From the NCBI GenBank assembly GCA_964187785.1, contig OZ076421.1, positions 52,452,001 to 52,516,000 on the forward strand: a stretch of DNA of 64,000 bases, written 5' to 3'. The notes under the pieces are model-generated. The model ran no database searches. It worked only from the letters and a program-made list of their open reading frames with translations, and had not been told where the DNA came from. The translations under genes were made by a program, and so were the position numbers. Origin of the DNA: Amphiscolops sp. MND2022. Lineage: Eukaryota. Position 1 is the first letter of the stretch. Each line of letters begins with the position of its first letter. Below, one piece after another: positions 5,982-34,615 of this stretch.

Positions 5982-6000
5982 GTCCTCGGCTTCTTTGCCC
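5982..6000 (-). other. polypurine tract (PPT) of element 1
   Basis: GGGCAAAGAAGCCGAGGAC lies immediately before the TG of the 3' LTR. The equivalent sequence is at 20636-20655 in element 2. Confidence 0.7.
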
Positions 6001-6003
6001 AGT

Positions 6004-6453: not shown

Positions 6454-6670
6454 TATAATAGCGAACTGATTAGCAGTGAATTCGCAATATGACTGATTTC
6501 CTTCACTTGGAAAGTTTGCTCACATGGTTTGTGTGATCTCCATGAATTGTTCAGCTGGCAGACTGAACAATTCTCCTTATATAGCAGATAACTTTAAAAT
6601 GTTACTAATCCATGGTTTTACGCCACGTCTTCTGTTATTGTATAGCGATTGTTATTTCAGACTTTTGAAC

Positions 6671-9600: not shown

Positions 9601-10415
9601 CGCGAGTGTCAGGGCTATCGGTTAGAGCTTCTGAAACTGCTTGGTGCGTCTTCTTTCATCTAATCACGGGTTGCCCGATCGCTCAGTTGTTTGAGCATCG
9701 ACATGCTTCTTGGAGGAGATGCCGATTACGTTTCGGAGCTGTTCCAGGACCTCGGTTCTTGCTTTCATGAGGCTGGGTATGTGAATGACGTGGATCGCGA
9801 GGCTGCTGTGAATGAGTTCAAATCACTACTTGTGGATCTGCGGCGACAGTCTGTTGATCATTCTCAGGTGTTAGACGTGTTCCAGTATTTGGAGTCAAAA
9901 GACAGCTTTCAGTGCCGTACCAATGCCAAACGGGTGATTCGTTTGGTTCGTGCAATCGTGTGCCCGGCTCCAAAGGATATGCCAGCTGTGGATATTTCTG
10001 TGAGTGGGACTCAGTAACCTCCTGCTACTATTCGTTCGGGACTTAATTGCGTACAATCTTTTGTGCTTCACCCGAAATTCGTGTCCAGTGATTTGTTGAC
10101 TGTTGAGTGTCTGGAGGAGCTAAAGAGTAACATGCCTGTGGGTCATCAGTTTTTGTCTTGTGGGATTTTGATCCTATCAGTGTTGTGAGTCGCCACCCCA
10201 GTGCTGATATTTACTCGAGTTTGTTGCGATGTTATACTGCGTACTATACTGGGCAGGTGGAGTCTTGGAGGGCTCGGATGGGTGGAGCGTCAACATCAGC
10301 TTCAAAGGCTGCTCCTACAGCTGGTACGTCTGAGGCTGAATGTTCTGGTTCCGGTGTTTCTTCACAGACGAAGAAGAGTTCTATAGGCTCCAAGCGACAT
10401 GGGAAGTCGCTTTAA
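6671..10415 (+). pseudogene. antisense multi-exon cargo gene of element 1 (zinc finger + hAT-transposase-like), disabled
   Basis: Coding exons 6671-6977, 7059-7289, 7390-7593, 7731-7859 and 8011-~10415, all introns GT..AG phase 1. Lesions: TGA at 6812-6814, ~29-bp deletion near 8215 removing the first Cys of the CxxC, and stops at 9541, 9660 and 10015. Confidence 0.88.
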
Positions 10416-10915
10416 AACTGAACATTATTCTAAAATTTTGACTCGTATTTTGTTTGTATATATTTTGTTGTTGTTATTGTATTTACCAGACTCTTCGCGT
10501 CTGGTGCATTGGAATGTTCTTGAAAAGAAAAGGAAAAAAAATGAAGTCGAGAGACGAGAAAATGCCCCAATTTGAGAGAGGGAAAAAACTCGGGGCTGGC
10601 TCAATGTCCATTGTGTCTTTCAATTTAGCGTTTAGCCTCTGCATCGTTTTCATTAAAGTTGTAGAGTAGAGTATAGTGAGAGATCGCTCGTAGATTGAGG
10701 AGATATAAAGTGAACATGTATAACAGCCGTCCCGTTCTTAGTTTAAGGCGTGTTCGGTTATCTGGTCTCAGGCCACTGCCTGGGCTGGGGTTTGCCATAA
10801 TCCGTTTCTGGGTCATTGGCTGGGCCGTCATTCCAATGTATACTGTTATTCCTCAAATCCGTGTCGTAGTTGGGTGGGTGGGTTAGTAGGAGAGACGATG
10901 ATCCTTCTTGGATGA

Positions 10916-13900: not shown

Positions 13901-16353
13901 GAATGTTCGACTGGCGAAATTGAAGGCTAGTTGTTCTACCGACTTTTTGTCTGCCATTTGCAAGACATGATAAGCCTGGGAGCAGTCTAGCTTGCAAAAT
14001 AACTTCTTTCCGGCGAGATGTTGGGCTGCATCGGAGAGGGTGCTGACTGGTTGGTTGTTGTTCGTGTAGTCGTCAGCTATTAGATTGTTGATCTTTCTAA
14101 GGTCAACTAGCTGTCGAAGGCGCCCGTTTGGCTTGCTTTGAGCAAATATGGGGCTAGCTTATTTCCTGAACGGGAGAGTGGTTATGATGCCGTAGTAGTG
14201 CATCAAGGCTAGTTCTACCGTGAGAACCTCTTTGAGATTCACGGGACAGGGTAGGCTCTGCGTATAGGCTGGTTGATCGTTCTTCGGAGTCAATTTTATC
14301 TTGAAGTCGTGATTGACGCCTATGTCTAGGCGGTGGCGGGCGAATATGTCGTGGTTTTCGACAAGGATGTTCTCGATGTCCTCTCTATCGTGGCTCTCTA
14401 ACTGTGAGTTGTTCCACTTGAAATTTTCGAGGAATTTTTGTCTGTCCTGGGGGCCCGATGTTGGGTTCAGTTTCTGGATTTGCTCCAACTCTTCAATCTC
14501 TCTGAGGATCCTTCTTTGAACGGGGGTATGGGTGGAGGGATCACCCGGATTGTCTGGGGTTGGGAACCAGAACTGCTGGGATGTTTCGAGTTTTTCTGTA
14601 GTTTTCAGCAGTTCGTTTACGTACTCGAGTGCTTGTTCTGAGTCGTCCTCGGTTAGGACCTTTAATGCCGCCGTGGATAAAGGTTTGATGTTTTTTGCTT
14701 CGTTGGGGGTTGTAATGTGGAATTCGGCCACTACTGTGTTCTTCTTGATGGTAAATGGAGTGGGCGAGGTATTCGTTATTCGAATCGGCGTCTTCATTTC
14801 GTGGACAGTTGACAGAGAACTGGCTATTACTATTGGTTTATCTTCCGTGTAGGCCGGTATCGGGTTGATGACACCGGTGGTGTCCGCAATCGATCTGATG
14901 TTGACTGAGGCCTCGACTGTGATGCATTGATCGGGGGCCAATGTTGTTTGATTGAGGATAGTCACTTTATGTGTTTTCGTTGGTTGTTCATCAGATACAG
15001 GTTGTATTGCGTAGGTTAGGTGATGGAAATGGAGGAGTCCCTGACTGGCGTCCAGGATGGCGCTATTGGACTTCAGGAAGGTGAGGCCTAGTATGGGGCC
15101 AGTGATTTTGTTGGCCACAATGAAAGTTTCTTTGAATGTCCAATCTCCTATTTCAAACTGTATTTGGATGGTCCTGATCGGGGTTTCTATGTCGCCGTTT
15201 GCGACCTGTAGTTTAAAAGGGGGCGGATCAGATTCCTTCAGGATGTTAGCGGGGCTCATATTTTTGAGTTTTTGATATTCATTCTCGGGCATGCAATTGA
15301 CCAGGGCACCTGAGTCGATAAGGGCATCTATCGAGAAGTGTTGGAAGTCCATTGGTGCAAACAGCATGCGTCTCTTCTGTTTAAGTGCAATTGCCGAGGA
15401 TATTGGTAGGCATTGTTCCCCCATTGGATTGTTTGTTGTGGTGATATTTTCTAATTGGTGGGCATCGAGTTGTAAAAGCAAGCTGTTGTCACCTTGTTGT
15501 GTATTTGTGGGCTTGGGGTTCCCATCATTGTTGGGTTGCTGGTTTTGTTCGAATTCACAGGTCAGTGCCCGTTTGATGCGCTTCGTTTTTGGTGCTGGGT
15601 TAGCCGTAGTTGTAGTTGCAGGGGTAATGGTGGGGTCCCTGGCTCTGTATGTGTCTGGTACCTCGATGGTAGAGGTTCCTGATTTGGTAGGATATTTCTT
15701 TATTGGGTACTCGGGACTTTGGGGGGATGATGGTGATGACGTCATTGCAGCCCGGATTTCGTTCGTGGGTGCCGGAACTCTTAAGTTGACCTGGGTTCGG
15801 TCATGATGGGTGTAGGAGGTTTAAGAATTGGTCGGAGGGTTATCGTCGGTGGTGCGACGATAACTTGTAGGTCTCGATCCTGTTCTTCGGCGTGTTGTAC
15901 GGGTGAAAGACTGTCGTTGTCATCATCTCGCCTTTTGGTGATGTCCAATTTCATGTTCGTTCTTTTGACGAAATCGTGTGAGGGTACATTGATCGTCCCT
16001 TTGAATGTTAGAGTCTCCTGGTCGTATAGGTCTGGGTTGTGGTAAGGGTCACAGTTGTAGTCTGTGTCGAGTATGTAAGTGAGAGGAGTAGAGCTGGGTG
16101 GGAGAGGGCGTCTAGTTGAGCTGTATAGTAGAGGGTTCCCTTGATACCATTCTGGGTACGGTAGTTTGTCGATAGTGGATTTGTTGAATTTTATGAGGCG
16201 CCTGATGAGCCATCTCCGCTGCCAGTCGGTAGATGGTTCTCCGGGACACTCTGCAAACATTTCTAAATCATGGTCCTTCGGGGGTTCAGATGTTGTGTAG
16301 AATCGGTAATCGATGTAATCCCCGAAGCGAAGACGTGGCTTCAGGAGTTTTTT
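10916..16353 (-). pseudogene. pol: pol of element 1 (unknown N-terminal region, PR, dUTPase-like linker, RT, RNase H, integrase with GPY/F motif)
   Basis: PR ALIDSGA; RT CAQYVGD (DD mutated); RH VLMTDA..VLTDNKS; IN HHGQAGKHPG..CTEC, MDVFS, GILERSH and WTGPY. Several stops and frameshifts, e.g. a stop at 14159. Confidence 0.96.
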
Positions 16354-17741
16354 GACTCGTTTTCTTGTGGATAGTTTGTGGATGCTGGGCGATGGGGATA
16401 TTGTTAGGTGATGTTGCTTTGGGTGTCTTCCACCACGTGGGGCGGTTTGCCCAGTTTGCCCCCGAATAACAATCTTTTGTCTCGTGGCTCATTTTTCCTC
16501 ATGTTTCACACGGCGAGGATGGGGTTGTGTTTTGGTTCTTTTGGGATCGTTTATCCCTGTTGGTTTTGCGGCAGTTCCGTAGGAGGTGCCCTGGGTTGCC
16601 GCACCCGAAGCATGTTCCCGTTGTTTTGGGAGGTTTATTCTGTTGTTGTTGTAGGCTGGGTTCGATGTTGTGTACCCCTGTTATTGATGAGCCATCGTTA
16701 GTGGCGAGTCCATTGAGTTCGATTTCTCGTTCTAAGTGCTGTACCATGGTTTCTTACGATTCGGTTTCGAGTATGGCCTGATTTAGGACATTCTTGAGAC
16801 GCGGTGGCATCTTGGCATAGAAAGAGGTTTCGATGAGCGTCTTCTCCGTAAGCTTCTTGAGCTAACTTTTGGTATTGCTCTAAGAAATCTGGAAATGTTT
16901 GCTGGCTTGGATTGAACGACAGATTTTCCCATTTGCAACGTGCGGTTGCCACTGTCTGCTGTCTTACATATCGTCGGCGGAAGCCAGCAAGGATGTCATT
17001 CAGGTGTTCTCGGGTTACTTCCGTCATGTTCCTGAATGTTTGTAATTAATTGTAATTAATGAACATTTGTAATTATTGTTCGCCTCGCAGAAGAGAATGG
17101 AAGTAGTGGATTTTTTCCTCTTCTGTAATGTTCGGATACACTTTGAGGCTTGTTTGAAAAAGGTCCTCAGAGTGCTCGAACTTGTCCGTTTTCCCGTCAA
17201 ATGTTGGCATAGTGGTGGACATGGCTTTTGGTAGCCTAGGGACACCGGAATTGTGCCTAGTTGCCGTTTGCAGCGATTGTAACAGTTTATCAATGATGTC
17301 ATCAGGGTACCTCTGGTTTGGAGTTGGCAGGCTTGATGATCGTTGATGGCTGTTGTCGTGTTGGTTCGCTGAAACTCCTGTCACCATGTGTTGACTAACT
17401 TCTTGGCGGAATGCGTTTAATTCGGCGGGATTAGGTTCCAGAACTACGTTCTCAAGGTTCATTCCGTTAGGACTCGGACTCGTATCATAGGACGTTCCGT
17501 CTGTCAACGAGTATATTTTGGAAGTCAGGTTTTCTATCATGTTCAGGATTTCACGCTGACCTGTCTCGGTGTCCTTGATCCTTTTACTCATTGACTTTTC
17601 AATTTTCTCTGACAAGTCTGCGAAGTCCTTATCGGAAATGCTGGGGACGTTTTCTGTCCTCATGCTTGAACACTCAGGTTCGCCTACAGAGCTGGAAATC
17701 GAATCGCGTCGGGCTTTCCTCTTAGAGCTTCGTTCTGGCAT
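16341..17741 (-). pseudogene. gag: gag of element 1 (starts inside the 5' LTR)
   Basis: ATG at 17741. Capsid-like TFDGKTDKFE..F motif and two CCHC knuckles (CFGCGNPGHLLRNC and CETCGKMSHETKDC). Disrupted by an insertion near 17045-17078. Confidence 0.93.
17375..17386 (-). other. primer binding site of element 1 (tRNA-Leu-like)
   Basis: TGGTGACAGGAG(T) directly follows the LTR terminal CA. It is 1 mismatch from the complement of the vertebrate tRNA-Leu(CAG) 3' end, TGGTGTCAGGAGT. The tRNA identity is inferred. Confidence 0.8.
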
Positions 17742-18704
17742 GCTGTTTAAGCAAAATCTCAAAATCTTCTTAGGAATAACTCAAGTACTTTCGATGAACA
17801 AAGAAATTGCGGGGCGCAAAATTCAATTAGCGTTTAATTAGAAAGTGTTTAATTCGCGACAAAACAAAATATTCAACTAAAAATGGCTTCCAAATTCCAA
17901 CATATTTATACTTTTCCTCGGGGAAGCGGGGAATTAGTGCAACAGTATTTCACAACTTGTTCAGCCAGGAGTCCATCCCAGGCAGGGAAACCGGAAGTTC
18001 AGTTCCGCTTTGTCGAACTCAGACCTTCAGTTTGTTCATGCTTTCCGAGGAAAGCACGCGTCCACTTCCTGTCTGAATTGCGACTCCGCTTCCCTTCGCC
18101 TCCAGTTTCCCGCCTTTTCAAGACGCCGAGGCTGAACTTGACAAAGACAAAGGCAATGAATCATCGAAGATACTGCAAATTGAATATGAAAATTGGGAAA
18201 ATGATGACAATCAATATTTATAAAATAATTTCCGAATCAATAAAATAGCATCGTTCTGGCTTCAGATTAACAAAATCCCACACTGGAATATGAATGAATA
18301 GGCTGGACTACTTATGCGGTGTTTACAGAGCTGATTTGACTGAAAACTGCAAAGCTTTCGCCTCAGGATATGGTCCGGGACGGACAAAATTTACTGGGGG
18401 AAAAAGGAATAGATACTAGTGACGAATATTGTGACAACATCGTTTTGGAATATGGTTAACAAATTAACGGTAACAGGTTCAAGGAATAGGATGTACATGT
18501 TATTAATGCACACGATTATTAATTAACATTAGGTCTTGAGCCCAGGCTGTGGTCCAGGCTTGTTCATTAATTTATCACAACTTACATGCAAAACATTATA
18601 TGTAATATTTAAACGGCTGTAATATTCATGATCACACTCTATAAACTCCAGATTCATTCCTGAACAAGATTACATGGCAACATTAACATTTTCACTTGTA
18701 TGAT
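17387..18704 (-). repeat. 5' LTR of element 1, left part (interrupted by element 2)
   Basis: Matches 4055-5373 and resumes at 34009. Confidence 0.95.
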
Positions 18705-20635
18705 TGTGTTGACTGTCTTCTTGGTGGAATGCGTTTAGTTCAACAGGGTTTGGTTCCGGAACTGCGTTTTCAATATTTATTCCATTAGGGCTCGAACTAG
18801 TATCATAGGACGTCCTGTCAGCCAACGAATCTATTTTAGAAGTCAGGTTTTCTATCATCTTCAGAATTTCACGCTGACCAGTCTCAGTGTCCTTGATCCT
18901 TTTGCTCATTGACTTCTCAATCTTATCTGACAAATCTGCGAAGTCGTTATCGGAATTACTGGGGACGTTTTCCGTCCTCATACTTGAACATTCGGGTTCG
19001 CCTACAGAACTAGAAATCGACTCGCGTCGGGCTTTCCTCTTAGAGCTTTGTTCTGGCATGATGCTAGTACGAGGCGTTGAAATCGTCAGGAATAACTCAA
19101 GAATTCTCGACTAAACAGAGAAATTGCGGAGCGCAAAATTTTAATTGACGTTTTATTAGATAGTGGTTAATTCGCGACAAAACAAAATTATTCAACTAAA
19201 AATGCCTTCCAAATTCCAACATATTTATACTTTTCCTCTTGGAGAATCGGGGATTAGTGCAACAGTATTTCACAACTTGTTCAGCCCGGCGTCCATCCCA
19301 AGCGGGGAAACCGGAAGTTTAGTTCCGCTTTGTCGAATTCAGACCTTCAATTTGTTCATGCTTCCCAAGGAAAGCAAGCGTCCACTTCCGGTCTGAGTTG
19401 CGACTCCGCTTCCCTTCGCCTCCAATTTCCCGCTCTTTCAAGACGCCGAGGCTGAACTTGACAAAGACAAAGGCAATGAATCATCGGAGATACTGCAAAT
19501 TGAATATGAGAATTGGGGAAAAATGATGACAAGCAATATTTATAAAATACTTCCCAAATCAATAAAATAGTATCGTCCTGTCTTCAGTTCAACAAAATCT
19601 CACACTGGAATATGAATGAGTAGATTGGGCCGCTTGAGCGGTGTTTACAGAGCTGATTTGACTGAAAACCTGCAAAGCTTGGCCCCAGGTTATGGTCCGG
19701 GACGAACAAAATTTGCTTGGGAAAGGTGGATAAATACTAGTGACGAGTATTATGACAACATCATTTGTAATATGGTTAACAAATTAACGATAACAGGTTC
19801 AGGGGATAGGATGTACACGTTATTAATGCACACAATTATTAATTAACACTGCATCTTGAGCCCAGGTTGTGGTCCAGGCTTGTTCATTAAATTATCACAA
19901 TTTACATGCAAACTATTATATGTAATATTTAAACGGTAATCATATTCATGGTCATACTCTATAAACTCCAGATTCTTTCCTGAACAAGATTTACATGGTA
20001 ACATTAACATCTTCACTTTAATGATCAACTTTGGAACATGTTTATTTTCAGGTCGCATCCCAGGCCGTAGTTCGTACTATTCTAAGCAATCGGCACGAGG
20101 TATTTATTGTTAGATCAATTGCACTCATATTGTCATTCGGTTACTGCAGAGGGTATTAGAATGCTTACATGTATTTGCTAACACATCTAATTCTATTGCG
20201 TTGTGCTTAGCGGCGTGATTTGTTCTCAGGCCGCTTGCCAGGCCGGCGCTTTACAGGCTGAATTTGAGGCCGGCTGCCAGGCCGCAGTCCCGCTATAGAA
20301 ATAGTTGGCCGCTCGTTAGGCGGTGTGGTTCGCGTGTTATTAACTGTAGCACTGTGTTATTATTATTATTATTATTAACTGCACTCCGTGATGTTGCAAG
20401 TACGTATGTATATAAGTGTATATAATTATATATAACTGCTAATATATATATGTACTTATTTAATCAATTATTTCACAAATTATATCATTTGGCGCCATGG
20501 TCTTAATTCGTATGGGATTAGCTGATTGTTTTTGATTGTTTATTTTCGTCTTCTCCTTCGTCCTTTTCCCAATTTATTCTCCGAAGACTGGGTTAGGTTT
20601 GCTGCAGAATTCACAGCTCAAGTGGGGCTGTGACA
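18705..20635 (-). repeat. 3' LTR of element 2
   Basis: Plus strand runs TGTGTTGAC..GCTGTGACA; near-identical to 32059-34003. Confidence 0.96.
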
Positions 20636-21107
20636 GTCCCCGGCTTCTTTGGCCAGTTCCCTCGGGGAGAAGAAATTGGGAAATGGATCGTATTGGGGTT
20701 TCAAACAGAGTAGGGAGATCATCTCTCATTGAATCATATGATCGCCATGAAGAGCTGCTTGTCCAGCTGCTGCCTGACCAGTAGCCTTCTGAGCTGCTGT
20801 CGGTCTCACTGATCGGGCTCATAAATACATCGTCTGGTAAGACGGGATTCTCAGTTGTAAAGCGGCGGATAACTCTGTTTTCATCCTCGTTGATAATTGC
20901 CTGCGGCGTTTGATTGTCGTGAACTAAGACAATATGCTGGTCTTCTGTTTTGATAATTTCGTAAGTAATAGGGCGGCGTACAGGATTGATTAACCGGTAA
21001 TTGGGTGGCGGTGTACTAAGCCGCTGTCTTGGCTGCTGCTGTGGTTGGTCCCGATCCAGAGTGAAAACGTCTTCATTTGTTTGATCGTTTAGCTGCGAGT
21101 GAATCAT
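20574..21107 (-). CDS. orphan sense ORF3 of element 2 (177 aa, reads into the 3' LTR)
   Basis: First 149 aa are highly similar to ORF 6004-6453. Confidence 0.6.
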   Translation of the reverse strand: MIHSQLNDQTNEDVFTLDRDQPQQQPRQRLSTPPPNYRLINPVRRPITYEIIKTEDQHIVLVHDNQTPQAIINEDENRVIRRFTTENPVLPDDVFMSPISETDSSSEGYWSGSSWTSSSSWRSYDSMRDDLPTLFETPIRSISQFLLPEGTGQRSRGLSQPHLSCEFCSKPNPVFGE

Positions 21108-21328
21108 TATAATAGCGAACTGATTAGCAGTGAATTTGTAGTGTGACTGATTTCCTTCACTTGGAAAATTTGTTCACATGGTTTGTGCGATCTCTAGGAA
21201 CTGTTCAGCTGGCAGTCTGAACAACTCTCCTTATATAGTACATAACTTTTTAAATATTACTATTCCATTGTTTTACGCCACATCTTCATTGTGTTATGGT
21301 TTTGTTATTTTTCAGAAAGTTTTGAGAC

Positions 21329-24300
21329 ATGAGATCCACTGAAGAAGATAATAGTAGGAAATAATAATAATAGGAAAGAGTGCGTGGTTGTGATGACAGG
21401 GATGACAGTGATGAGGCAAGTGTTACTGGCAGTCGCGATGAAACTGGAGAGGCTGTTGCAGGCATAGTGACCGAGACGGCAGGACGAGGCTTTGGTGAAA
21501 AAGATGTTACTGAGGATGAGATTGTTGAGGCTGATATTGAGAGCTGCCCTGAGAGTGAGTACTACCATTCTGCCACAAGCGACAATCGTCATGACATAGA
21601 TTACTTGGCGGACAAGAAAGGTAAGCTTTCCTAGAAATTAAATGGGTGGCCGGCCCTTTCTAGTTTTGTATGAACGCGTTCTTTTTGCATCTACTTTCTA
21701 CAGAGACTGATGATGATGAGCTTGACGAGGATTATTGTCCCAGCGCCAGTTCAAAATCGCAGCGCAAGAAGAAGAAGCAGTCTCGGTCCAGTCGGATGCT
21801 TTCGACGAGCAGTGTCCGGTCAGCGAAGCGTGTGCGATTGGCTGATGTCGTCGCGGGGGTTATTCCAAGGCCTCCCACCTTAATGGACAGCTGTGGCGAG
21901 GAGTATGATCCACCGACTGTTTCTGCTTCTAAGACTCTCGAAAGTAGGTATTCCTTCTTCTTTCTTGTCGTTTGTAGTGTACTTGTTAGGAGTCGTTTAT
22001 TTGTGAGTTCCAATGCTCCTTGTGAGATATCGTTATGTCATTATTTTAGTCGCTGAACTGGGGCACGGACCAGGAGTTGGATCATTTACAGATGGTGATG
22101 TTTTCATATGTGAGGCTGCTTTGGAGACGCCTGCACAGGAAAGTGACATTGCCTCTTTGCTTCCTGATGATTCTTCTCGACACACCCGAACTCAACATGG
22201 TCGGACAGCGGTAGGGTTGGAGCCCTCTGTCATCCATAACGAGTGGGAGAATGGTTTGTTTCCCTGTTTGTTTTCTTACTTCTGTTTGATCTATCCTCCG
22301 TATGGTCCTTCGAATGTGTAGTTGTCTAGCTGTTCTGGTCCTCTTTCCTTCTACCATTGCGTTTTTGATATATTATTATATTTGTTATCAGCTGGTCTGC
22401 AGTCTGTCCCCACTGGTTCTCCTGTTGTGATGTCGGCCGCGCAGTGTGTCATGTTGGCTCGAAGTGCTGCCCGGGCTGAGCGGACGGAGACGCAGAAAGA
22501 GACCAAGAATTTGGCTAAACGTGAGTATTTTCTCAAGTTTCTTCGTTTTTGTATGTTATTTGTTGTTTCTTCGGTTGTTGGGCGTTCAGTTGTATTCGTC
22601 TTCCGTATGTGTTGATGGTGTACTTTCCAGCTTGTTTGTTTCGTCGCTAGCTTGTTGATTGATTGTGCGTGTTTTATTTTAGAATTCGAAGAGCTGTCTC
22701 GTCTGTTGAAACGGAAAGGGATCGACGCCAGTGATCCTGGGCGTGTTGTGGATCCTGTCGAGCTTAAAAAGGAGCGGCTTCTGGCTCGAGACGAGGAACG
22801 TGCGAAGAAACAGACCGAGAGGCATGTTCTGACTAAGGCCATGACTAATCACCCAATACCAAGGCTGTTTGTGAGTCGTCGAAATGATAGAAGCCCCAAT
22901 GGATTTAATTGCTCGGTGTGCCGTAAAGATGTGTCCTTCCTGTCCCGAGGGCCCCGAGGCATCTGGAGGCACTTTAAGTGCAAGGGCCATTTCGCAAAGG
23001 ATCGGCGTTACCGATTTGACCACGAAGACTTCATCTATACTGAGAAGTTCGATGCCATTGCTGTCAGTGAAGTAACGTTGGAATTGCCAGCTGAAATCGA
23101 GAAGACGCCACCAGTTACTCTGGGGAAAATGAACAACTTTGTCGAGGACGAGGTGGATGCATTGGTTGGCGTCCCGTCCAATGTGCCTCCTACGACTCTT
23201 GTGGGTTGTTTATTTGAGCTATTGAGAAGTGGTGGTTCACAGATGTTTCTCCGTCGTCTGTGGAGCCAGTTCCGTACGACCCTTCCAGTTGACAGCCCGT
23301 ATGCCTGTGTTACCTGGAGTAAGACTGAAATCTTGGTGGTGATAGTCCAGACCCTCTACCCACGCGTACTTCGTCGTGTGAAGTCATGGCTTGGCGACAG
23401 CCCTTTTAGCTTGTCAGTGCAATCGTCATTCTCTGGGGTGCGATGTACTGTCCGATGCTGTCCCGATGACTCCTTGCGGGAAGTGTGTCTTGTGGATGAA
23501 GATGTTGGTTCTGTCTCCTGTGAAGCCGAAATTCGTTGCCTGTCCTGCGTGTTGTCCTTGGTATCCACTCGTCATGGTCCTATTGCCATTCAAAACTGCC
23601 CGCCAGTGTTATTTAACGCTTACATGGATTGGTGCCGTTCTATGGGTCGACCTGTGCCTGTTGTTGCTACCATCTTTGATATCGATCTTCTGCGTCGTTT
23701 GGTTCGCGATGCCAGCTTGGTTTGTGTTGGGTCCGTGGATCCCTTTGCTGTCATAGAGTATCTGACGCAGCGTTTGAAAAAGTTTGCTCCCCAGGCTTGG
23801 CTTCTGAACCTGCCGCAATTCCGTCTGTGCCTGGAGTCGGGGGTTGTTCCTCCAGAAAATTTATGCGTTGTTTTGCAAGAGCTCCTGGACATATGGTCTG
23901 ATGTGAAGATTTGTGTGTCGAACGATATCCTGTTGATGAAGAAGAATGTCAATGTCGTGGATCTGGATTCCCTCTTGTGTTCAGACCGTTTGGGTTTGCC
24001 TCGACTGGCTTTATTGCATGTCCTTTTGCTGTGTTTTCGATCAAATTGCAAGAGGTTATTTGAATCGGATGTTGCAGATTACGCTTGCAGGAGTTTTACT
24101 GATTTTTGCTTTTTCTATTGGAGTTTGTTGAGCAAGGTGAAAAAGATAAGTCAGCTACCTTCCATCGACAATTGGTCCGACTACATTGACAAGCCACTGA
24201 ACAGTTGGGCGAATGTGACTGCTTCCGAATGTCTTCAGGGAGAACCCAGTATCATGAAGGCGCTGCGTGGTTTTGACGAGAGTCTTCGACGGGCTTTCCT

Positions 24301-25081
24301 TCGTGAATCTCAAGGATATTTGTTGGAATTCCTGAAAGTCCTTGGCTCGTGTTCTTATGCCAAGTCTCGTATTGCGCGGTCCCTCAGTTGTCTTAGTGTC
24401 GATATGTTATTGGGTGGTGACGCTGAGTATGTTGTGGATTTGTTCCAGGACCTTGTCCTTTGCCTCCAGGAATCGGGATGTCTTGGCGATGTGGAACGTG
24501 ATGCCGCCACGAACGAGTTTAAATCCCTTGTTATCGATTTACGTCAGCGAAGTGTTGATTGCTCGCAGATTTCTGATGTCTTCAAGTATCTGGAGGGACT
24601 TGAGAGTTACCAGTGTCGGGCCTTTGTAAAGCAAGTTGTGCGGCTGGTCCGAGTGATCGTTTGTCCTGCTCCTAAATCTATGCCTCCTGTTGATATTTCG
24701 ACTAGCGGGACGAGTTTGCCTCCTTCTGTGATCCGGTCAGGTCTCCGAAGTGTACAGTCATTTGTACTACATCCTAAATTCATGTCTTCCGATTTGCTGA
24801 CTGTGGAATGTCTGGAGGAATTGAAGATGAATCTGCCGAATGGTCCTCAGTTCTTGGATTGTGGCGCCTTCAATCCATGGGTTGGTGTGAGTCGGCATCC
24901 CGTTGAAGAGATCTACAACAGTCTGTTCGAATGTTATAATGCCTATTATTCTGGGCAAGTGAATGACTGGCGGATTCGGATGTCGTCTGGTGCGGTAGTG
25001 CCTTCGAGTTCTACTGTTGGTCGTGCTTCTATGGATTGTAGTCAGCCGGGGTCGTGTTCGTCATCTCAGGCGGGAAAATGA
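21329..25081 (+). CDS. antisense multi-exon cargo gene of element 2 (~1,087 codons; zinc finger + inactive hAT-transposase-like protein)
   Basis: Coding exons 21329-21620, 21704-21943, 22050-22253, 22392-22520 and 22683-25081, all phase-1 GT..AG introns. The last exon is an uninterrupted 799-codon ORF containing CSVC-x16-H-x5-H. The only lesion seen is the in-frame TAA TAA TAA TAG at 21362-21373. Confidence 0.88.
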
Positions 25082-25615
25082 GGTAAACGTGCTGCGCGTC
25101 AGGGGAAATCCTGTTGAAAACTATTTGAAACTAAACTTTGATGACTTTGATTTATTTTCTTTGTTGTTTCTTTTATTGTGTAGTCATTGTTTCGATATGA
25201 GGTTCCGTCTGTCGGTTCCGTTGTTAGAAAGAGAAAAGAAAAAAAAATCGATCAATTATGCTCTGGTAGTATGGAGCAAAAGAAAAAGGTTGAGGCAGCT
25301 CGGTGGTCCACTGGGTTATTCAATTTAGTTTTTGGCCTCTGCATCGTTTTCATCAAAGTTGTAGATTAGAGTATCATGAGAGATTGCTTGTAGATTGAGG
25401 AGATTTAGAGTGAACATGTATGACAGTTGTCCTGGCCACCGTTTAGGGCGTGTTCGGTTATCTGGTCTCAGGCCACTGCCTGGACTGAGGCTTGCCATGA
25501 TCCGTTTCTGTGTCATTGGCGAGGCCATCATTCCGATGTATACTATTATTCCTCAAGTCCGTGTCGTAGTTGGGTGGGTGGGTTGGTAGGAGAGACGATG
25601 ATCCTTCCTGGATGA

Positions 25616-28600
25616 TTAATATTCAGTTTGTGCGATAGCGTCGATGTTCACTGGATTATAGTACGCATAATCTTTTTTCCAGTTTGCTGGCGGGTTCGCT
25701 CGTAGATTGTATTTGCTTTTCCTGGGGGAATTGGGGGGCGGGATCGCACTTTCATGATTGTTTGAATCAAAGCTCGGTATTGAAACTTCAGGGTGTTCGT
25801 CCGGGTTGGCTATTGAGGGGTGGGCTTCTGGGTCAAACGTTGGTGTATCCTTTTGGGCGAGCTGTTCTTCGGGGGACTCGGTAATTGTTATGGTAGGTTC
25901 TTTTTGAAAAGAAGTGTTTGGCGTTTCGGCGAAATCCTCGGAATCCGACTGCCATGTTTGAGCGTACAGGTCATAATGGAAGACGTCTACTTCCTTGTCC
26001 GGAATATAATCTTTGGGCAAGACATGTTTGTCCGGAAGTGGTTTGTCGGTCGGGCATGGTTTTAGTCGGATTCGGTGGAGGATTTGCGTGTAGTTTGTCT
26101 GTAATTTCCGGATCAGGTAATTGTTGTTTGTAATACTTTGACCACAATGTAGGGTCCTGTCCAGAGGTATTCCCTGAATGGGATTTTGGTACCTTGGGTG
26201 TTCGCTCTGGGGTGAAGTGCGTAGCAGTATTCGTTGACGTGGAGAGGATGGGCATTTGCTTTTTTGTCATAACATTGTTTGTATCGTATGTAGGACTGCA
26301 TTAGGTTTTTGCTCACGGTCTCCTTAATCTGTTGGGTTTTGTGTAGGATGTCTTCTCCCAGATTCGTTGTTGTGGTTGAGTGTTTTTCATTTCGTATGCC
26401 GAACTTGAGGTCCAGTACGTTGTAAGGGATCCTCCCGTGAAATACTCGGCTAGGTTCGCACCCCAAGGCGGAGTGGTATGACGTGTTGTAATTGAGTGTA
26501 GCTATGGCCACGTACTGGTGCCACATGGTTCGTCTTTCTCCTGTGGAGATTTTCAATGATTTTTTGAGTGACGCGTGGCTTCTCTCTAGTATTCCAATGG
26601 TTTGGGCATGCTTGGTGGTTGCGTGTTTGAGCTGTATGCCAGGGTCCTGGCTGCGTCTGCCATGACTTCAGACATGAATTGGGTACCCTTATCTGTAATG
26701 ACGATGGTTGGAAGGTAGGCGTGGCGAGTCATAATGTCTACAAGGACTCGGGCTACTGTTGGGGCGTCCGTCCTGACTACGTTGTACGTGAAAGGATAAC
26801 GAGAGAAAACGTCCATTGCTGTTATAATAGCATTATAACCTCCAGAGGGTTCATCAAAAGGAACGATGTCCATTTGGAGGGCGTCTTCTGGTCCTAAAGC
26901 CATTTTGGACGTATCGATCATCGGTGGCGTGATGGACCGTTTGTCCGTGCGTTTGGTTTGCAAGCATTGGGTGCATCGGGAGATGTGGTGGGCTATCCTG
27001 GCTGCCATTCCTGGGTAGTAATACTTCTCCCGGCATTGTTGTATTACCTTGGCTATCCCTGGGTGTTTGCCTGCTTGTCCGTGGTGCGCTAGGATGAATG
27101 GTTCGACTAGGTGCTCAGATAGCAGAATCTGTAGGAATTTGACTTTGCCTGTTTGGTCGTAGTACTGCCGGTATAGCAATCCGTCTTTTAGTATTATTCT
27201 GCTGTCCTGGGCAATGTATCGAGCTGCGCGGGGGTCGCTTGCTAAGAGTTGTTCATTGTACGGTTCTTTGAGCAAGCGGAGTTTGTAATTTCTCAGGACG
27301 TTGTCTTGGTCCTGTTGTTGTCTCATTGTTTTCATTGGCCCATTGTGTCCATTGTTGTTTTCAGGGAGGGTTTGGGTTACAATTACTTCCGTTTGAAATA
27401 TGGTAACCTCTTTGTCACTAGGTGCTGTTTCGGTGTTTGTGTCTTCTGGATGTGGTTTGTTGTTGTTGTCCTCAGTGATTTTCTTTCGTGCTCGCAGCTT
27501 ACGCTCCCATATCTGTTCCTCCGTTTCCGTGTCGTCATCGGGCATGAAGAAGAATTGTTCTTCTTCTGCAACATCGGACGACTGGATGTTGACTTGGATG
27601 GGAGTGGTCCGTATGTCGTCCCTTATTGTGAGATGGACTTTGTCCTTTGGCTGAATGTCGAGACGGGACAGGAAATCTGCTGCCGTGTTCACTTTGCCTG
27701 GCACGTGAGCGATAGTGAAATGGAACTGGAGGACAGACTCACACGCGTTCCATAGGGCTGGAGGGATAATTTTCGTTTGGAAAAAACGTGTCACAGATTT
27801 GTTGTCCGTGAGGACGACAACCGGTTTGGTTGATTCCCAAAGAATGTGGCTATATTCCATGAAGACGAAGTAGATAGCCAGGAATTTTTTTGCGTATATG
27901 AACAGTTTAATCTGGGAGGGAGAGAACGTTTTTGAACCGAATGCCACTGGTGCATAGGTTTTTCGGATCGAGCTGATCTTCTCTTCTGGGTTTTCTTCGA
28001 TCATGAGGGCGTAGCCCGCGTTTTTGAAATTGGCGTCGGTCATGAGCACGTATTGTCTGTTGGGCATGGGTTGTTTGAGCCACAGGCCGCATGCGTTGTC
28101 CAAGGATTTGTTGATGTTGGTGAAACTGTCCATGATCTCGTTTGTGATCTTGATGGGTTTTTCAGTTTTGATGAATTCGTGGAACGGTGCTATCTTTTCG
28201 GAAAGTCTAGGGATGTAGTTCCGATAATAGTTGACGAAGCCTATGTAACGCTGGAGTCCCTTTTTGGTCTTTGGGAAGGTCAGTTTTTGCAAGTACTTTC
28301 GAATCTTCTGATCTTGTGGGGCGATTCCTTCCGTCGACACAGTCCGTCCAAGGATTTGGACTTCCTTGGCACCGAACTGGCATTTGGTCATTGTCAAACG
28401 CAGACCTGCCTCTCGTACGCACTGAAAAACCTCACGCAGGTTGGTCTTCAACTCCTCGGCGTTGTGGGTGGCAATCCCGATGTCGTCAACGTACTGAGCG
28501 CACTTGTCAGCTTTGATGACTCGATCAAGATATTCTCTCATGAAGCTCGAGAAGGAGGAGAGGGACCTGCTGAGCCCCTGTGCGAGTCGCAGGTATGCGA

Positions 28601-31029
28601 ATGTTCGACTGGCGAAATTGAAGGCTAGTAGTTCTACCGACTTTTTGTCTGCCATTTGCAAGACGTGATAAGCCTGGGAGCAGTCCAACTTGCAAAATAA
28701 CTTCTTTCCGGCAAGATGTTGGGCTGCGTCGCAGAGGGTGCCGACTGGGTGGTTGTTGTTCGTGTAGTCGTCAGCTATTAGATTGTTGATCTTTCTAAGG
28801 TTTTTTTCTTGGCTTTCTTTGAGCAAATATGGGACTAGCGTATTTGCTGAACGGGAGGGTGGTTATGATGCCGTAGTAGTGCATCAAGGCTAGTTCTACC
28901 GTGAGGTCCTCTTTGAGATTCACGGGACAGGGTAGGCTCTGTGTATAGGCTGGTTGTTCGTTCTTCGGAGTCAATTTTATCTTGAAGTCGTGATTGACGC
29001 CTATGTCTAGGCGGTGGCGGGCGAATATGTCGTGGTATTCGACAAGGATGTTCTCGATGTCCTCTCTATCGTGGCTCTCTAACTGTGAGTCGTTCCACTT
29101 GAAATTTTCGAGGAATTTTTGTCTGTCCTGGGGGCCCGATGTTGGGTTCAGTTTCTGGATTTGCTCCAACTCTTCAATCTCTCTGAGGATCCTTCTTTGT
29201 ACGGGGGTATGGGTGGAGGGATCACCCGGATTGTCTGGGGTTGGGAACCAGAACTGTTGGGATGTTTCGGGTTTTTCTGTAGTTTTCAGCAGTTCATTTA
29301 CGTACTCGAGTGCTTGCTCTGAGTCGTCCTCGGTTAGGACCTTTAATGCCGCCGTGGATAAAGGTTTGATGTTTTTTGCTTCGTTGGGGGTTGTGATGTG
29401 GAATTCGGCCACACTGTGTTCTTCTTGATGGTAAATGGAGTGGGTGAGGTGTTCGTTATTCTAATCGGCGTCTTCATTTCGTGGATAACTGACAAAGAAC
29501 TGGCTATTACTATTGGTTTATCCTCCGTGTATGCCGGTATGGGGTGGATGACACCGGTGGTGTCCGCAATCGATCTGATGTTGACTGAGGCCTCGACTGT
29601 GATGCATTGGTCGGGGGCCAATATTGTTTGATTGAGGATAGTCACTTTATGTGTTTTCGTCGGTTGTTCATCAGATACAGGTTTTATTGCGTAGGTTAGG
29701 TGAGGGAAATGGAGGAGGCCCTGGCTGGCGTCCAGTATGGCGCTATTGGACTTCAGGAAGGTGAGGCCAAGTATGGGCCCAGTGATTTTGTTGGCCACAA
29801 TGAAAGTTTCTTTGAATGTCCAATCTCCTATTTCAAACTGTATTTGGATGGTCCTGATCGGGGTTTTCGCCGTTTGCGACCTGTAGTTTGAAAGGTGGCG
29901 GATCAGATTCCTTCAGGATGTTAGCAGGGCTCATATTTTTGAGTTTTTGATATTCGTTCTCGGGCATGCAGTTGACCAGGGCACCTGAGTCGATAAGGGC
30001 ATCTATTGAGAAGTGCTGGAAGTCCATTGGTGCGAACAGCATGTGTCTCTTCTGTTTAAGTGCGATTGCCAAGAATATTGGTAGGCATTGTTCTCCCGTT
30101 GGATTGTTTGTTGTGGTGATATTTTCTAATTGGTGGGCATCGAGTTGTACACATAGGCTATTGTCACCTTGTTGGGTATTTGTGGGCTTGGGGTTTCCAT
30201 CATCGTTTAGTTGCTGGTTTTGTTCGAATTCACAGGTCAGTGCCCGTTTGATGCGCCTCGTTTTTGGTGCTGGGTTGGTGGTAGTTGTAGTTGCAGGGGT
30301 AATGGTGGGGTCCCCGGCTCTGTTTGTGTCTGGTACTTCGGTGGTGGAGGTTCCTGGTTGGGTAGAATGTTTCTTTATTGGGTACTCTGGACTTTGGGGG
30401 GATGATGGTGATGACGTCATTGCAGCCCGGATTTCGTTCGTGGGTGCCGGAACTCTTGAGGGTGACCTGTGTTCGGTCATGGTGGGTGAATGGGGTTTAA
30501 GAATTGGTCGGAGGGTTATTGTCGGTGGTGCGACGATAACTTGTAGGTCACGATCTTGTTCTTCGGCGTGTTGTACGGGTGAATGACTGTCGTTGTCATC
30601 GTCTCGCCTTTTGGTGATGTCCAGGTTCATGTTCGTTCTTTTGACGAAATCGTGGAAGGGTACGTTGATCGTCCCTTTAAATGTTAGGGTCTCCTGGTCG
30701 TATAGATCTGGGTTGTGGTAAGGATCACAGTTGTAGTCTGGGTCGAATATATAAGTGAGAGGAGTAGAGCTGGGTGGAAGAGGGCGTCTAGTTGAGTTGT
30801 ATAGTAGAGGGTTTTCTTGATACCATTCTGGGTACGGTAGTTTGTCGATGGTGGATTTGTTGAATTTTGTGAGGCGCCTGATGAGCCATCTCCGCTGCCA
30901 GTCGGTAGATGGTTCTCCGGAACACTCTGCGAACATTTCTAAATCATGGTCCTTCGGGGGTTCAGATGTTGTGTAGAATCGGTAATCGATGTTATCCCCG
31001 AAGCGAAGATGTGGCTTTAGGAGTTTTTT
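25616..31029 (-). pseudogene. pol: pol of element 2
   Basis: PR ALIDSGA; RT CAQYVDD; RH TDANFKNAGY..LTDNKS; IN HHCC, MDIV/MDVFSR/TDKGTQF and WTGPY. Frameshifts near 29870, 29400, 28810, 26640 and 26130. Confidence 0.96.
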
Positions 31030-32413
31030 GACTCGTTTTCTTGTGGTGCCATGGTTTGTGGCTGTTGCATTGGAATATTTTGTGGATGCTGGGCGATGGG
31101 GATATTGTTTGGTGATGTTGCTTTGGGTGTCTTCCACCACGTGGGGCGGTTCGCCCAGTTTGCTCCCGAATAGCAATCTTTTGTCTCGTGGCTCATTTTC
31201 CCACATGTTTCACACGGCGAGGATGGGGTTATGTTTTGGTTCTTTTGGGATCGTTTATCCCTGTTGGTTTTGCGGCAGTTCCGTAGGAGGTGTCCTGGAT
31301 TGCCGCACCCGAAGCATGTCCCCGTTGTTTTGGGAGGTTTATTCTGCTGTTGTTGTAAGCTGGGTTCGATGTTGTGTAACCCTGTTATTGATGGGCTATC
31401 GTTAGTGGCGAGTCCGTTAAGTTCGATTTCTCGTTCCAAGTGCTGTACCATGGTTTCGTATGATTCCGTTTCGAGTCTGGCCTGGTTTAGGACCTTCTTG
31501 AGGTGTGGTGGCATCTTGGCATAGAAAGAGGTTTCTATGAAACGGGGAGCGTCTTCTCCGTAAGCTTCTTGAGCTAGCTTTTGATATTGCTCTAAGAAGT
31601 CTGGGAATGTCTGTTGACTCGGGTTGAACGACAGATTTTCCTATTTGCAACGTGCAGTTGCCACTGACTGTTGTCTCACGTATCGTCAGCAAGAATGTCA
31701 TTCAGGTGTTCTCGGGTTACATCTGTCATGTTTCTGAATGTTTGTAATGCTTCGCCTCTCAGGAGAGAATGGAAGTAGTGGATTTTTTCCTCTTCTCTAA
31801 TGTTCGGATATACTTTGAGGCTTGTTTGAAAAAGATCCTCAAAATGCTCGAATTTGTCCGTTTTCCCGTCGAATGTTGGCATAGTAGTGGACATGGCTTT
31901 TGGTAGTCTAGGGATGCCGGAATTGTGGCTGGTTGCTGTTTGCAGCGATTGTAGCAGTTTATCAATGATATCATCGGGGTACCTCTGGTTTGGAGGTGGC
32001 AGGCTTGTTGATCGTTGGTGGCTGTTGTCGTGCTGGTTCGCTGAAACTCCTGTCACCATATGTTGACTGACTTCTTGGTGGAATGCGTTTAGTTCAACAG
32101 GGTTTGGTTCCGGAACTGCGTTTTCAATATTTATTCCATTAGGGCTCGAAGTAGTATCATAGGACGTCCTGTCAGCCAACGAATCTATTTTAGAAGTCAG
32201 GTTTTCTATCATCTTCAGAATTTCACGCTGACCAGTCTCAGTGTCCTTGATCCTTTTGCTCATTGACTTCTCAATCTTATCTGACAAGTCTGCGAAGTCC
32301 TTATCGGAAATACTGGGGACGTTTTCCGTCCTCATACTTGAACATTCGGGTTCGCCTACAGAACTAGAAATCGACTCGCGTCGGGCTTTCCTCTTAGAGC
32401 TTTGTTCTGGCAT
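31017..32413 (-). pseudogene. gag: gag of element 2 (starts inside the 5' LTR)
   Basis: ATG at 32413 and two CCHC knuckles. A 10-bp deletion lies near 31688. Ends at slippery AAAAAAC (31023-31029) before TAA. Confidence 0.93.
32047..32058 (-). other. primer binding site of element 2
   Basis: TGGTGACAGGAG, identical to element 1 and family B. Confidence 0.8.
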
Positions 32414-34003
32414 GATGCTAGTACGAGGCGTTGAAATCTTCAGGAATAACTCAAGAATTCTCGACTAAACAGAGAAATTGCGGATCGCAAAATTTTAGTT
32501 GACGTTTTATTAGATAGTGGTTAATTCGCGACAAAACAAAATTATTCAACTAAAAATGCCTTCCAAATTCCAACATATTTATATTTTTCCTCTTGGAGAA
32601 GCGGGGATTAGTGCAACAGTATTTCACAACTTGTTCAGCCCGGCGTCCATCCCAAGCGGGGAAACCGGAAGTTTAGTTCCACTTTGTCGAACTCAGACCT
32701 TCAGTTTGTTCATGCTTCCCAAGGAAAGCAAGCGTCCACTTCCGGTCTGAGTTGCGACTCCGCTTCCCTTCTCCTCCAATTTCCCGCTCTTTCAAGACGC
32801 CGAGGCTGAACTTGACAAAGACAAAGGCAATGAATCATCGGAGATACTGCAAATTGAATATGAGAATTGGGGAAAAATGATGACAAGCAATATTTATAAA
32901 ATACTTCCCAAATCAATAAAATAGTATCGTCCTGTCTTCAGATCAACAAAATATCACACTGGAATATGAATGGGTAGATTGGGCCGCTTGAGTGGTGTTT
33001 ACAGAGCTGATTTGACTGAAAACCTGCAAAGCTTGGCCCCAGGTTATGGTCCGGGACGAACAAAATTTGCTTGGGAAAAGGTGGATAAATACTAGTGACG
33101 AGTATTATGACAACATCATTTGTAATATGGTTAACAAATTAACGATAACAGGTTCAGAGGATAGGATGTACACGTTATTAAATGCACACAATTATTAATT
33201 AACACTGCATCTTGAGCCCAGGCTGTGGTCCAGGCTTGTTCATTAATTTATCACAATTTACATGCAAACTATTATATGTAATATTTACGGTAATCATATT
33301 GGCCATACTCTATAAACTCCAGATTCTTTCCTGAACAAGATTTACATGGTAACATTAACATCTTCACTTTAGAACAACTTTGGAACATGTTCATTTTCAG
33401 GCCGCATCCCAGGCCGTAGTTCGTACTATTCTAAGCAATCGGCACGAGGTATTTATTGTTAGATCAATTGCACTCATATTGTCATTCGGTTACTGCAGAG
33501 GGTATTAGAATGCTTACATGTATTTGCTAACACATATAATTCTATTGCGTTGTGCTTAGCGGCGTGATTTGTTCTCAGGCCGCTTGCCAGGCCGTGCGCT
33601 TTACAGGCTGAATTTGAGGCCGGCTGCCAGGCCGCAGTCCCGCTTTAGAAATAGTTGGCCGCTCGTTAGGCGGCGTGGTTCGCGTGTTATTAACTGTAGC
33701 ACTGTGTTATTATTATTATTATTATTATTATTAACTGCACTATAGCTCCGTGATGTTGCAAGTACGTATGTATATAAGTGTATATAATTATATATAACTG
33801 CTAATATATATATATATATGTACTTATTTATTCAATTATTTCACAAATTATATCATTTAGCGCCATGGTCTTAATTCGTATGGGATTAGCTGATTGTTTT
33901 TGATTGTTTATTTTCGTCTTCCCCTTCGTTTTTTTCCCAATTTATTCTCCGAAGACTGAGTTATGTTTGCTGCAGAATTCACAGCTCAAGTGGGGCTGTG
34001 ACA
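32059..34003 (-). repeat. 5' LTR of element 2
   Basis: Near-identical to 18705-20635. The PBS-side terminal base is mutated (plus strand tatg instead of tgtg). Confidence 0.95.
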
Positions 34004-34008
34004 ATGAT

Positions 34009-34615
34009 CAACTTTGGAACATGTTTATTTTCAGGCCGTATCCCAGGCCGCAGTTCGTAGTACTCTATGCAATTAGTACAAAATATCTATTATTAGATCA
34101 ATTGCACTCATATCGTCATTGGTTACTGCTGAGGGTATTAGAATGCTTACATGTATTTGCTAACACATTTAATTATATTGCGTTGTGCTTAGCAGCATGA
34201 TTTGTTCTCAGGCCGCTTGCCAGGCCGGCGCTTTACAGACTGAATTTGAGGCCGGCTGCCAGGCCGCAGTCCGGCTATAGAATTATTTGGCCGCTCGTTA
34301 GGCGGTGTGGTTCGCGTGTTATTAACTGTAGCACTGTGTTATTATTATTATTAACTGCACTATAGCTCCGTAATGCTGTAAGTACGTATGTATGTAAATG
34401 TACATAATTATATATAACCACTAATATGTATGTATTTGTTTAATCAAGTTTTTCACATATTATATTATTTAGCGCCATTGTCTCGGTTCGTATGGATTTG
34501 GCTGATTATTTGTTGATTGTTTATTTTCGTTTTCTCCTTCGTCCATTTCCTAATTCATTCTCCAAAACTGGGTTGGATTTGCTGCAGAATTCACAGCTCA
34601 AGTGGGGCTGTGACA
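34009..34615 (-). repeat. 5' LTR of element 1, right part
   Basis: Matches 5374-5981 (subtype a) and is followed by TSD CCCTC. Confidence 0.95.

Follow-up and report, generated by a model that had tools for sequence, protein, structure and literature searches.

A cargo gene of Ty3/Gypsy retrotransposons that very probably derives from a hAT transposase and may act on the elements' own long terminal repeats

A 64,000-nucleotide stretch of Amphiscolops sp. MND2022 DNA (assembly GCA_964187785.1, contig OZ076421.1, positions 52,452,001 to 52,516,000; hereafter the window) holds Ty3/Gypsy retrotransposons that carry, antisense to their own genes, an additional multi-exon gene, here termed the cargo, and the locus raises the question of where this gene came from and what it does for its carrier. 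The explanation favoured here, with a probability of roughly 55%, is that its product is a hAT transposase that was captured and disarmed and now serves as a putative sequence-specific activator or anti-silencer of its own long terminal repeat (LTR). The observations behind this explanation are the antisense site 3' of integrase, the loss of the catalytic Asp-Asp-Glu (DDE) triad and of the CxxH motif, the zinc ligands that never vary, the evidence of purifying selection, the exchange of the gene as a cassette and the group-specific motif arrays of the LTRs; the five-exon structure and the Hermes-like fold enter it as predictions.

Two carrier elements lie on the minus strand of the window, where reverse transcriptase (RT), RNase H and integrase are recognised by Pfam, and their LTRs, target duplications and RT-RNase H-integrase order characterise them as Ty3/Gypsy LTR retrotransposons. 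In correction of a sequence-only reading of the same DNA, copy 1 (W1) and copy 2 (W2) are nested and not tandem, W2 having inserted into the 5' LTR of W1. The cargo gene of W2 occupies the plus strand between integrase and the 3' LTR (21329-25081), with five predicted exons separated by introns that are all GT-AG and in phase 1; its last exon contains an open frame of 798 aa (protein P0001, window 22685-25078). The upstream exons are acidic and Ser-rich, as had been noticed from the letters (16-29% Asp plus Glu in exons 1-3, 18% Ser in exon 2). The basic patch given in the same reading as KKKRR/RKKKK, resembling a nuclear localisation signal, is present as RKKKK in exon 2 and as KKKRR in copy 1; the sister copies read RKQKK, so that it is only loosely kept. 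Sister copies L136, L147 and L148 keep every one of the five exons open and bordered by GT-AG, and four are open, with one exon unaligned, in L146; the cargo of copy 1 contains a frameshift and stops.

The cargo constitutes a large family in G000, the genome searched for family copies, pol loci and hAT frames. At least 73 near-full copies (73-96% identity) were found there, the majority with open frames, together with at least 135 matches to a distant relative and at least 150 to a more distant type first met just left of the window. Relative to the window type (group A), group B is about 45% identical, groups C1 and C2 about 27%, and group D less than 20% outside the finger. At all 70 cargo-first loci (20, 30 and 20 loci picked from match lists) pol lies on the opposite strand, and cargo is present at seven of eight loci picked by RT similarity. 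The gene thus displays the features of an antisense accessory open reading frame (ORF), being conserved, present in most copies, antisense, and located with pol on one side and the 3' LTR on the other; the number of near-full, mostly open copies and the purifying selection described below argue that it is not a chance frame. Locus L171, the eighth of these, was considered as a cargo-less element and rejected, since it is truncated within integrase and therefore offers no evidence for the cargo being dispensable. Group C copies contain three extra introns inside the region equal to window exon 5, which are missing in groups A and B, and the first internal intron has one position common to groups C and D. 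Loss of introns from an antisense gene would require recombination with its spliced transcript. Protein database searches with the cargo matched only unnamed family members, and no intact donor transposase was found in them. Because nothing in G000 matches protein P0170 at more than 39%, the family probably occurs in at least one other genome.

Evidence for a hAT-type origin comes from the predicted structure of the protein. The cargo was modelled with AlphaFold2 on a 100-row alignment (predicted local distance difference test score, pLDDT, 90; predicted template-modelling score 0.77), and the comparison with Hermes that the sequence-only reading had proposed returned Hermes in all of the top ten Foldseek rows (best E 1.3e-4). 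With VIA, Hermes scored Z 14.2 over 389 residues at a root-mean-square deviation (rmsd) of 5.5 Å, the next non-Hermes chain reaching 5.5; in a wide VIA search of 48,161 chains Hermes (Z 13.0) was the sole chain at Z>=8, followed by chains at about 5.5-6.0, with ISCth4, Tn5 and RAG1 at 5.5-5.8. The predicted model combines an RNase H-like core with a helical insertion domain in Hermes-like topology, as in the hAT fold. The ESM Atlas neighbours of the cargo are hAT/ZBED clusters (0.77-0.81), which provide a lead only. The captured hAT-type protein read from the letters therefore stands as a fold match, and not as a match by sequence methods. A profile of the hATs of G000 itself, by comparison, retrieves Hermes at 9e-77. 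Those hATs include intact-looking frames of 496-697 aa with DDE and ERxxS motifs (L116-L121), and the G000 hAT frames have no detectable relation to the cargo by profile comparison. A DUF4371 search of G000 was empty, as was its control, and no inverted repeat of at least 40 nt surrounds the cargo, shorter terminal inverted repeats being outside this search.

The active site of this scaffold appears to have been dismantled. Key residues of Hermes are D180, D248, R318, W319 and E572 in the available part of the source (PMC6027215). The exon 5 frame of the window copy contains SPFSLSVQSS (Q246), IAIQNC (Q303/N304) and VKQVVRLVRVIVCP, and VIA ranges pair W211/S212 of the cargo with Hermes P142/S143. 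The match starts of Cas9 RuvC, Hsp70 and YeaZ all place the strand-1 Asp at Q246, given the first-Asp positions of these three proteins. Replacement of the first catalytic Asp by Gln in both window copies (SLSVQSS and SLSIQTS) had been read correctly and extends to the family: Asp occupies position 246 in 0/67 copies, Gln being found there in 23 of the 24 copies from group A and in 14 of the 19 from group D. The second Asp region also reads as stated, IAIQNC and VVIQGC, but the D248 site maps better to N304 than to Q303 because of the spacing to the next helix and of a D-x-G in group D; Asp is present at 304 in 11/67 copies, none of which has an acid at 246, and at 303 in 0/67. The reported lack of CxxH and ERxFS holds throughout (0/67 copies and, for ERxFS-like motifs, 0/57). 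What had been described as a dimerisation-like tail is the helix directly before the catalytic-Glu segment of Hermes; the E572 helix itself appears replaced, since 18 residues instead of 24 separate the equivalents of P565 and I589 and the model has no helix there. At the R318/W319 equivalents, in a by-eye register, P, S or E stands at 389 and F at 390 in 32 of 48 copies, with no R or W. An acid is found at 334 in 45 of the 48 copies from groups A-C, and position 670 is acidic in each of the 30 group A/B copies scored. Scored segments covered more than 85% of the query in groups A-C (51, 48 and 43 of 52 copies) and more than 80% in group D (20, 19 and 14 of 20). The DDE triad, whose preservation in most copies would speak for an active transposase, is intact in no sampled copy, and on this model-based register a hAT origin with a dead active site is very probable.

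The zinc finger has been retained. The exon 5 frame contains FNCSVCRKDVSFLSRGPRGIWRHFKCKGH, with ligands C76, C79, H96 and H102, and the C2H2 finger recognised from the sequence retains all four in 71/71 copies. It is the best conserved part of the protein between seven group A types (89% versus 70-71% for the core and C-terminus) and differs between groups. The N-terminal 180 aa modelled alone (pLDDT 85) matched nothing significantly in Foldseek or VIA, and a BED assignment was not obtained.

Selection on the cargo is purifying. Ratios of nonsynonymous to synonymous substitution rates (dN/dS) lie at 0.06-0.17 for the majority of pairs shown, with 0.27-0.34 for two pairs that are very young; the medians, restricted to pairs with dS 0.2-1.5, are 0.078 for group A cargo (10 unsaturated pairs) versus 0.029 for pol (135 pairs). 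The gene is maintained across RT lineages only 54-70% identical. Cargo and RT trees built from 35 of 52 copies both separate groups A, B and C except for W2, and disagree within groups; in the cargo tree the long branches join at the base. The RT of W2 is sister to group B (97/94), its cargo falls within group A (100/98), and its LTR motif is of the group A type. L141 and L152 have identical RT segments and cargos in separate 100/100 clades. These conflicts within groups arise because the cargo has been exchanged between elements whose LTR and pol stay alike: in tiling comparisons LTR, small ORF and pol remain mostly 95-99% identical, and identity falls to 60-75% over the cargo, lower in its 5' exons. 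The edges of exchange are the conserved promoter on the 5' side and a point about 100-250 nt beyond the cargo stop, so that the unit swapped is the cargo gene plus a few hundred bases. The cargo is exchanged as a clean cassette between element backbones, and group A has seven or more cargo types, which share about 70% identity, are saturated in dS and are spread over backbones that are 95-99% identical. Pair classes drawn by the analyst from the same data describe the pattern: with the same backbone and a different cargo (49 pairs), median identities are 95 for LTR, 69 for cargo and 97 for RT, and with the same cargo on a different backbone (9 pairs), 34, 88 and 84. A one-to-one correspondence of cargo alleles with LTR sequence was considered and rejected on the first of these classes.

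The LTRs carry short repeated motifs that differ between groups in step with the finger. CAGGCC occurs at least three times in the LTR zone of 23/23 group A elements (168 observed versus 8.7 expected), and every other group has its own 6-mer there, namely CCAGGC in 8/10 B, GACGTC in 7/7 C1, TACGGA in 7/7 C2 and CCGCAT in 19/20 D elements; LTR zones of groups C and D were set by distance from gag or cargo, and not by mapped LTR ends. These motifs stand at 8-19 times dinucleotide expectation and are reciprocally group-specific: three copies of the A, C1 or D motif are found in no other group, and of TACGGA in only 1/23 A and 2/20 D elements. Within the window CAGGCCG occurs 22 times against 3.3 expected from shuffling, 19 of the 22 lying within LTRs and all on one strand. 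The motif core persists although group A LTRs are just 15-73% alignable. Groups A and B, whose fingers are most alike, have the CCAGGC core in common and LTRs that are 0-10% alignable, and across groups the motif type changes along with the finger type. Motifs arrayed this densely in non-coding DNA of the element, and specific to a family, are what a VANC-like system displays, and they lend correlative support to a putative role of the cargo as a sequence-specific LTR transactivator or VANC-like anti-silencer.

Taken together, an ancestor of this Ty3/Gypsy clade would have captured an intron-bearing hAT gene once, long ago; catalysis would then have been lost, the finger and transposase scaffold retained and an acidic N-terminus added, and the resulting protein may bind the short repeated motifs of its cognate LTR, activating it or countering its silencing. 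A single old capture is suggested by the separation of groups A, B and C in both trees (bar W2) and by the first intron shared by groups C and D. A more specific proposition is tentative and falls somewhat short of even odds: that the protein transactivates its own element, or counters its silencing, in a self-specific manner, through a code of finger and LTR motif that differs among the five sub-groups, and is carried as an interchangeable allelic cassette.

Several points weigh against this interpretation. On the structural side, the Foldseek TM-scores for Hermes are modest (0.33/0.41), the rmsd is about 5 Å, and the active-site register derives from VIA range end-points and motif spacing. 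Neither P0001 nor its relatives or alignments gave a hAT Pfam match, and the profile comparison that had been proposed, made here for Dimer_Tnp_hAT, DUF4371, zf-BED and the ZBED families, matched nothing; PDB sequence and profile searches revealed no cargo-hAT link, and hhalign of the cargo against 14 G000 hAT frames gave probabilities of at most 0.2. In group C1, D247 and E303 (7/48 copies) bring an acid to within one residue of each of the two first sites. The weak neighbours of the finger are of the JAZ, matrin and SF3a types. As regards function, the match of motif and finger extends over only five related groups, with the LTR physically linked to the cargo; shared descent, or sites for host transcription factors, would account for it equally well. 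A check of the introns and untranslated regions of the cargo in six copies revealed no tandem motif, and the elements, like the flank, have a CpG observed/expected ratio of about 0.9 and show no sign of methylation that would need countering. Finally, allele diversity within group A goes unexplained by LTR recognition, since the cargo alleles there do not follow the sequence of the LTR.

The alternatives are taken here in falling order of probability. An RNA-level factor, whose finger would bind element RNA or double-stranded RNA for export, packaging or suppression of small-RNA silencing, with the LTR motifs as host transcription-factor sites, is unlikely. Matrin/JAZ-type fingers are RNA binders, and the H-x5-H spacing of the cargo finger, its weak zf-C2H2_jaz, zf-met and SF3a60 matches (best E 0.03-0.9; Atlas 0.83-0.84) and TUT4 as the top non-significant Foldseek row of the N-terminal model (E 0.79) point that way; all of these matches are below significance, however, the remaining protein is a predicted DNA-transposase scaffold, and the motif type varies with the finger type. 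The shuffling of at least seven group A cargo types over near-identical backbones, with divergence concentrated in the N-terminal exons and hAT body and not in the finger, would fit a factor through which element types compete with or exclude one another, or else a decoy directed at a host defence protein, its divergent alleles being maintained under frequency-dependent selection. Against this equally improbable-looking proposal, no positive selection is seen between types (dN/dS about 0.1 or lower), and the swaps could be neutral template switches limited to conserved flanks; it is in any case compatible with an LTR-directed regulator and not exclusive of it.

Slightly less probable is a tether or chaperone of the pre-integration complex that guides integrase to chromatin or shields cDNA ends. 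The transposase scaffold, the basic patches, the presence in all sampled intact elements, the insertion of copy 2 in a family LTR and the existence of tandem or adjacent family copies agree with it, but cargo swaps across integrases about 70% identical argue against a tight partnership with integrase. That the protein is a remodelled enzyme, still capable of some non-canonical nuclease action or end processing, is highly improbable: Asp at 304, D247 with E303 in group C1, and the acids at 334 and 670 are in its favour, yet an acid common to all groups is found at no position, in no copy is the first Asp retained and the Glu helix is missing from the model. As for an active or decaying hAT transposon simply nested in the retroelement, G000 does contain many intact hAT elements, but the cargo has no sequence match to them, is under purifying selection and stands in the same position and orientation at 70/70 loci with RTs 54-100% identical; fixed position and missing triad refute this explanation. 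A disarmed hAT transposase turned regulator of its own LTR remains the preferred account. The features on which the foregoing relies are collected in Table 1.

Table 1. Positions in the window of the cargo gene, its functional segments and the carrier elements
Feature	Position	Strand	Remarks
Conserved presumed cargo promoter, TATA-like 21232-21237	21151..21335	+	81-86% identity across group A backbones; cassette exchange has its 5' edge here
Cargo exon 1, acidic	21329..21620	+	four in-frame TAA stops in W2 copy
Cargo exon 2, acidic, Ser-rich, basic patch RKKKK	21704..21943	+	
Cargo exon 3	22050..22253	+	
Cargo exon 4	22392..22520	+	
Cargo exon 5, zinc finger and predicted hAT-fold body, 798 aa	22683..25081	+	further introns divide equivalent region in distant sub-groups
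C2H2 finger C-x2-C-x16-H-x5-H	22904..23014	+	four ligands invariant in 71/71 copies, five sub-groups
Region superposing on Hermes residues 133-609: predicted RNase H-like core, helical insertion, C-terminal helices	23288..24784	+	
Q246 at Hermes D180 position	23420..23422	+	
Q303/N304; N304 is the preferred Hermes D248 position	23591..23596	+	register by eye
F331-D-I-D334 replacing Hermes C265xxH268	23675..23686	+	register by eye
Segment in place of Hermes E572 helix, without ERxFS	24665..24721	+	18 vs 24 residues; model without helix
Cargo gene of copy 1, another cargo type (about 70% aa identity), broken	6671..10415	+	
CAGGCCG cluster in LTR, same orientation, candidate binding sites	20061..20284	+	also 5397-5631, 33398-33634, 34032-34266
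Ty3/Gypsy element copy 2 (W2), about 15.3 kb, inside 5' LTR of copy 1	18705..34003	-	5-bp target duplication ATGAT
Ty3/Gypsy element copy 1 (W1)	4055..34615	-	target duplication CCCTC; 5' LTR split: 17387-18704 and 34004-34615
3' LTR of copy 2, TG...CA, 1.93 kb	18705..20635	-	98.1% identity to 5' LTR at about 32059-34003
gag-pol of copy 2: zinc knuckle, protease region, RT, RNase H, integrase	25616..32464	-	frameshifted
Small sense-strand ORF between cargo and 3' LTR	20574..21173	-	moves with LTR, not with cargo
Equivalent small sense-strand ORF in copy 1	6004-6519	-	

The carriers and their surroundings present further features. The N-terminus of Gag (about 120 codons) begins within the LTR (window 31676-32464 and 17073-17780), which places a gag start in every LTR, 3' LTRs included (18670-19110, 4041-4448), and the gag frame reads through the LTR end and a presumed primer-binding site starting TGG. 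The small sense-strand ORF is conserved and gave zero Pfam matches; it has relatives at 37-43% identity in group B and was undetected in group C. Group B elements L173-L186 have LTR pairs 99.0-99.95% identical, indicating that this clade moved very recently. Equal-scoring cargo copies about 13.6 kb apart (G000:C10:2574534-2603617 and C8:18262211-18277628) have a spacing that suggests whole elements arranged in tandem. A third, older family member with a group D cargo and pol 43-69% identical runs off the left edge of the window (1428-2339; L211/L212). Two long minus-strand frames, at 35111-37066 with a weak helicase-like match (Viral_helicase1, E 0.003) and at 58787-59908 with weak NERD and P-loop matches (E 0.0008 and 0.0002), possibly belong to a Schlafen/STAND-like defence gene family, and a tandem repeat with a unit of about 200 nt (95%) and 83-nt inverted arms is located at 52536-53117. 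No phage match was obtained, and a tRNA gene search of the window was empty.

The significance of the locus lies in that the origin of an LTR antisense accessory gene becomes traceable, one kind of transposon apparently having kept the disarmed enzyme of another kind. Group-specific LTR motif arrays make the function of the cargo directly testable, and its clean cassette exchange poses a separate puzzle, that of how retroelements maintain accessory-gene alleles. If the proposed role is correct, a VANC-like system would have arisen independently in a retrotransposon from a hAT scaffold, providing a natural library of finger-motif pairs, and sequence-specific anti-silencing would extend beyond plant VANDALs. 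As the cargo is invisible to Pfam and HMMER, comparable cargo may go unnoticed in other genomes. No hAT-derived cargo in an LTR element is reported in the open-access literature searched; Repbase and subscription papers were outside that scope, and supplements of transposable element (TE) atlases could hold one.

Among known systems, ZBED1/DREF represents a hAT scaffold and finger domesticated by the host and reused as a DNA-binding regulator; unlike the cargo, which a mobile element keeps in hundreds of copies, such genes are single-copy and belong to the host genome. Hermes and other hAT transposases (PDB 4D1Q, 8EDG, 2BW3) resemble the cargo in predicted fold over about 390 residues (Hermes 133-609), in the N-terminal C2H2 finger, in the F/Y-S-hydrophobic-x-x first strand and in the P-x-L...P motif ahead of the Glu segment. 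The cargo differs in being only 10-12% identical, in lacking equivalents of D180, CxxH and E572, in having mostly lost D248 and, by eye, apparently R318/W319, in its added acidic N-terminal exons and in being carried by an LTR retrotransposon.

Antisense accessory ORFs are also known from plant Gypsy elements (Grande gene23, RIRE2 and Retand TRP28), whose origin and function are called unknown, with no resemblance to other TEs, in the available sections of PMC7264820 and PMC11963269; in contrast to these ORFs as described there, the cargo is multi-exon, exchanged as a cassette and very probably traceable to a hAT transposase. Bdelloid LTR elements, with ORF3 cargo consisting of GDSL esterases, DEDDy exonucleases or env (PMC5408684), are likewise animal LTR elements with captured non-env ORFs downstream of pol that are shared between elements, but no dead transposases are among those listed in the accessible portion of that source. 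The plant mobile domain (PMD), common to Gypsy elements, Mutator-like elements and MAIN/MAIL1 and tied to silencing (PMC5418596), offers a parallel as a domain swapped among retrotransposons, DNA transposons and host genes; it has another fold and, as presented in the excerpted text, no transposase body. The cargo was considered as a member of the VANC family and rejected, since VANC is MAIN/PMD-like according to the available text of PMC13547354 and the cargo model does not show the VANC/PMD fold and matches Hermes over most of its length. VANC of VANDAL DNA transposons is nevertheless proposed as a functional parallel: the targets of VANC21 are family-specific, dense, same-orientation motifs in non-coding DNA (PMC5735166, in the part available), and both systems pair an element-encoded accessory protein with such arrays (PMC5735166, PMC6719617). 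VANC sits in a DNA transposon, and its binding and demethylation have been shown, as the accessible parts of these sources state, whereas the cargo is a predicted hAT fold, known from sequence, within a retrotransposon.

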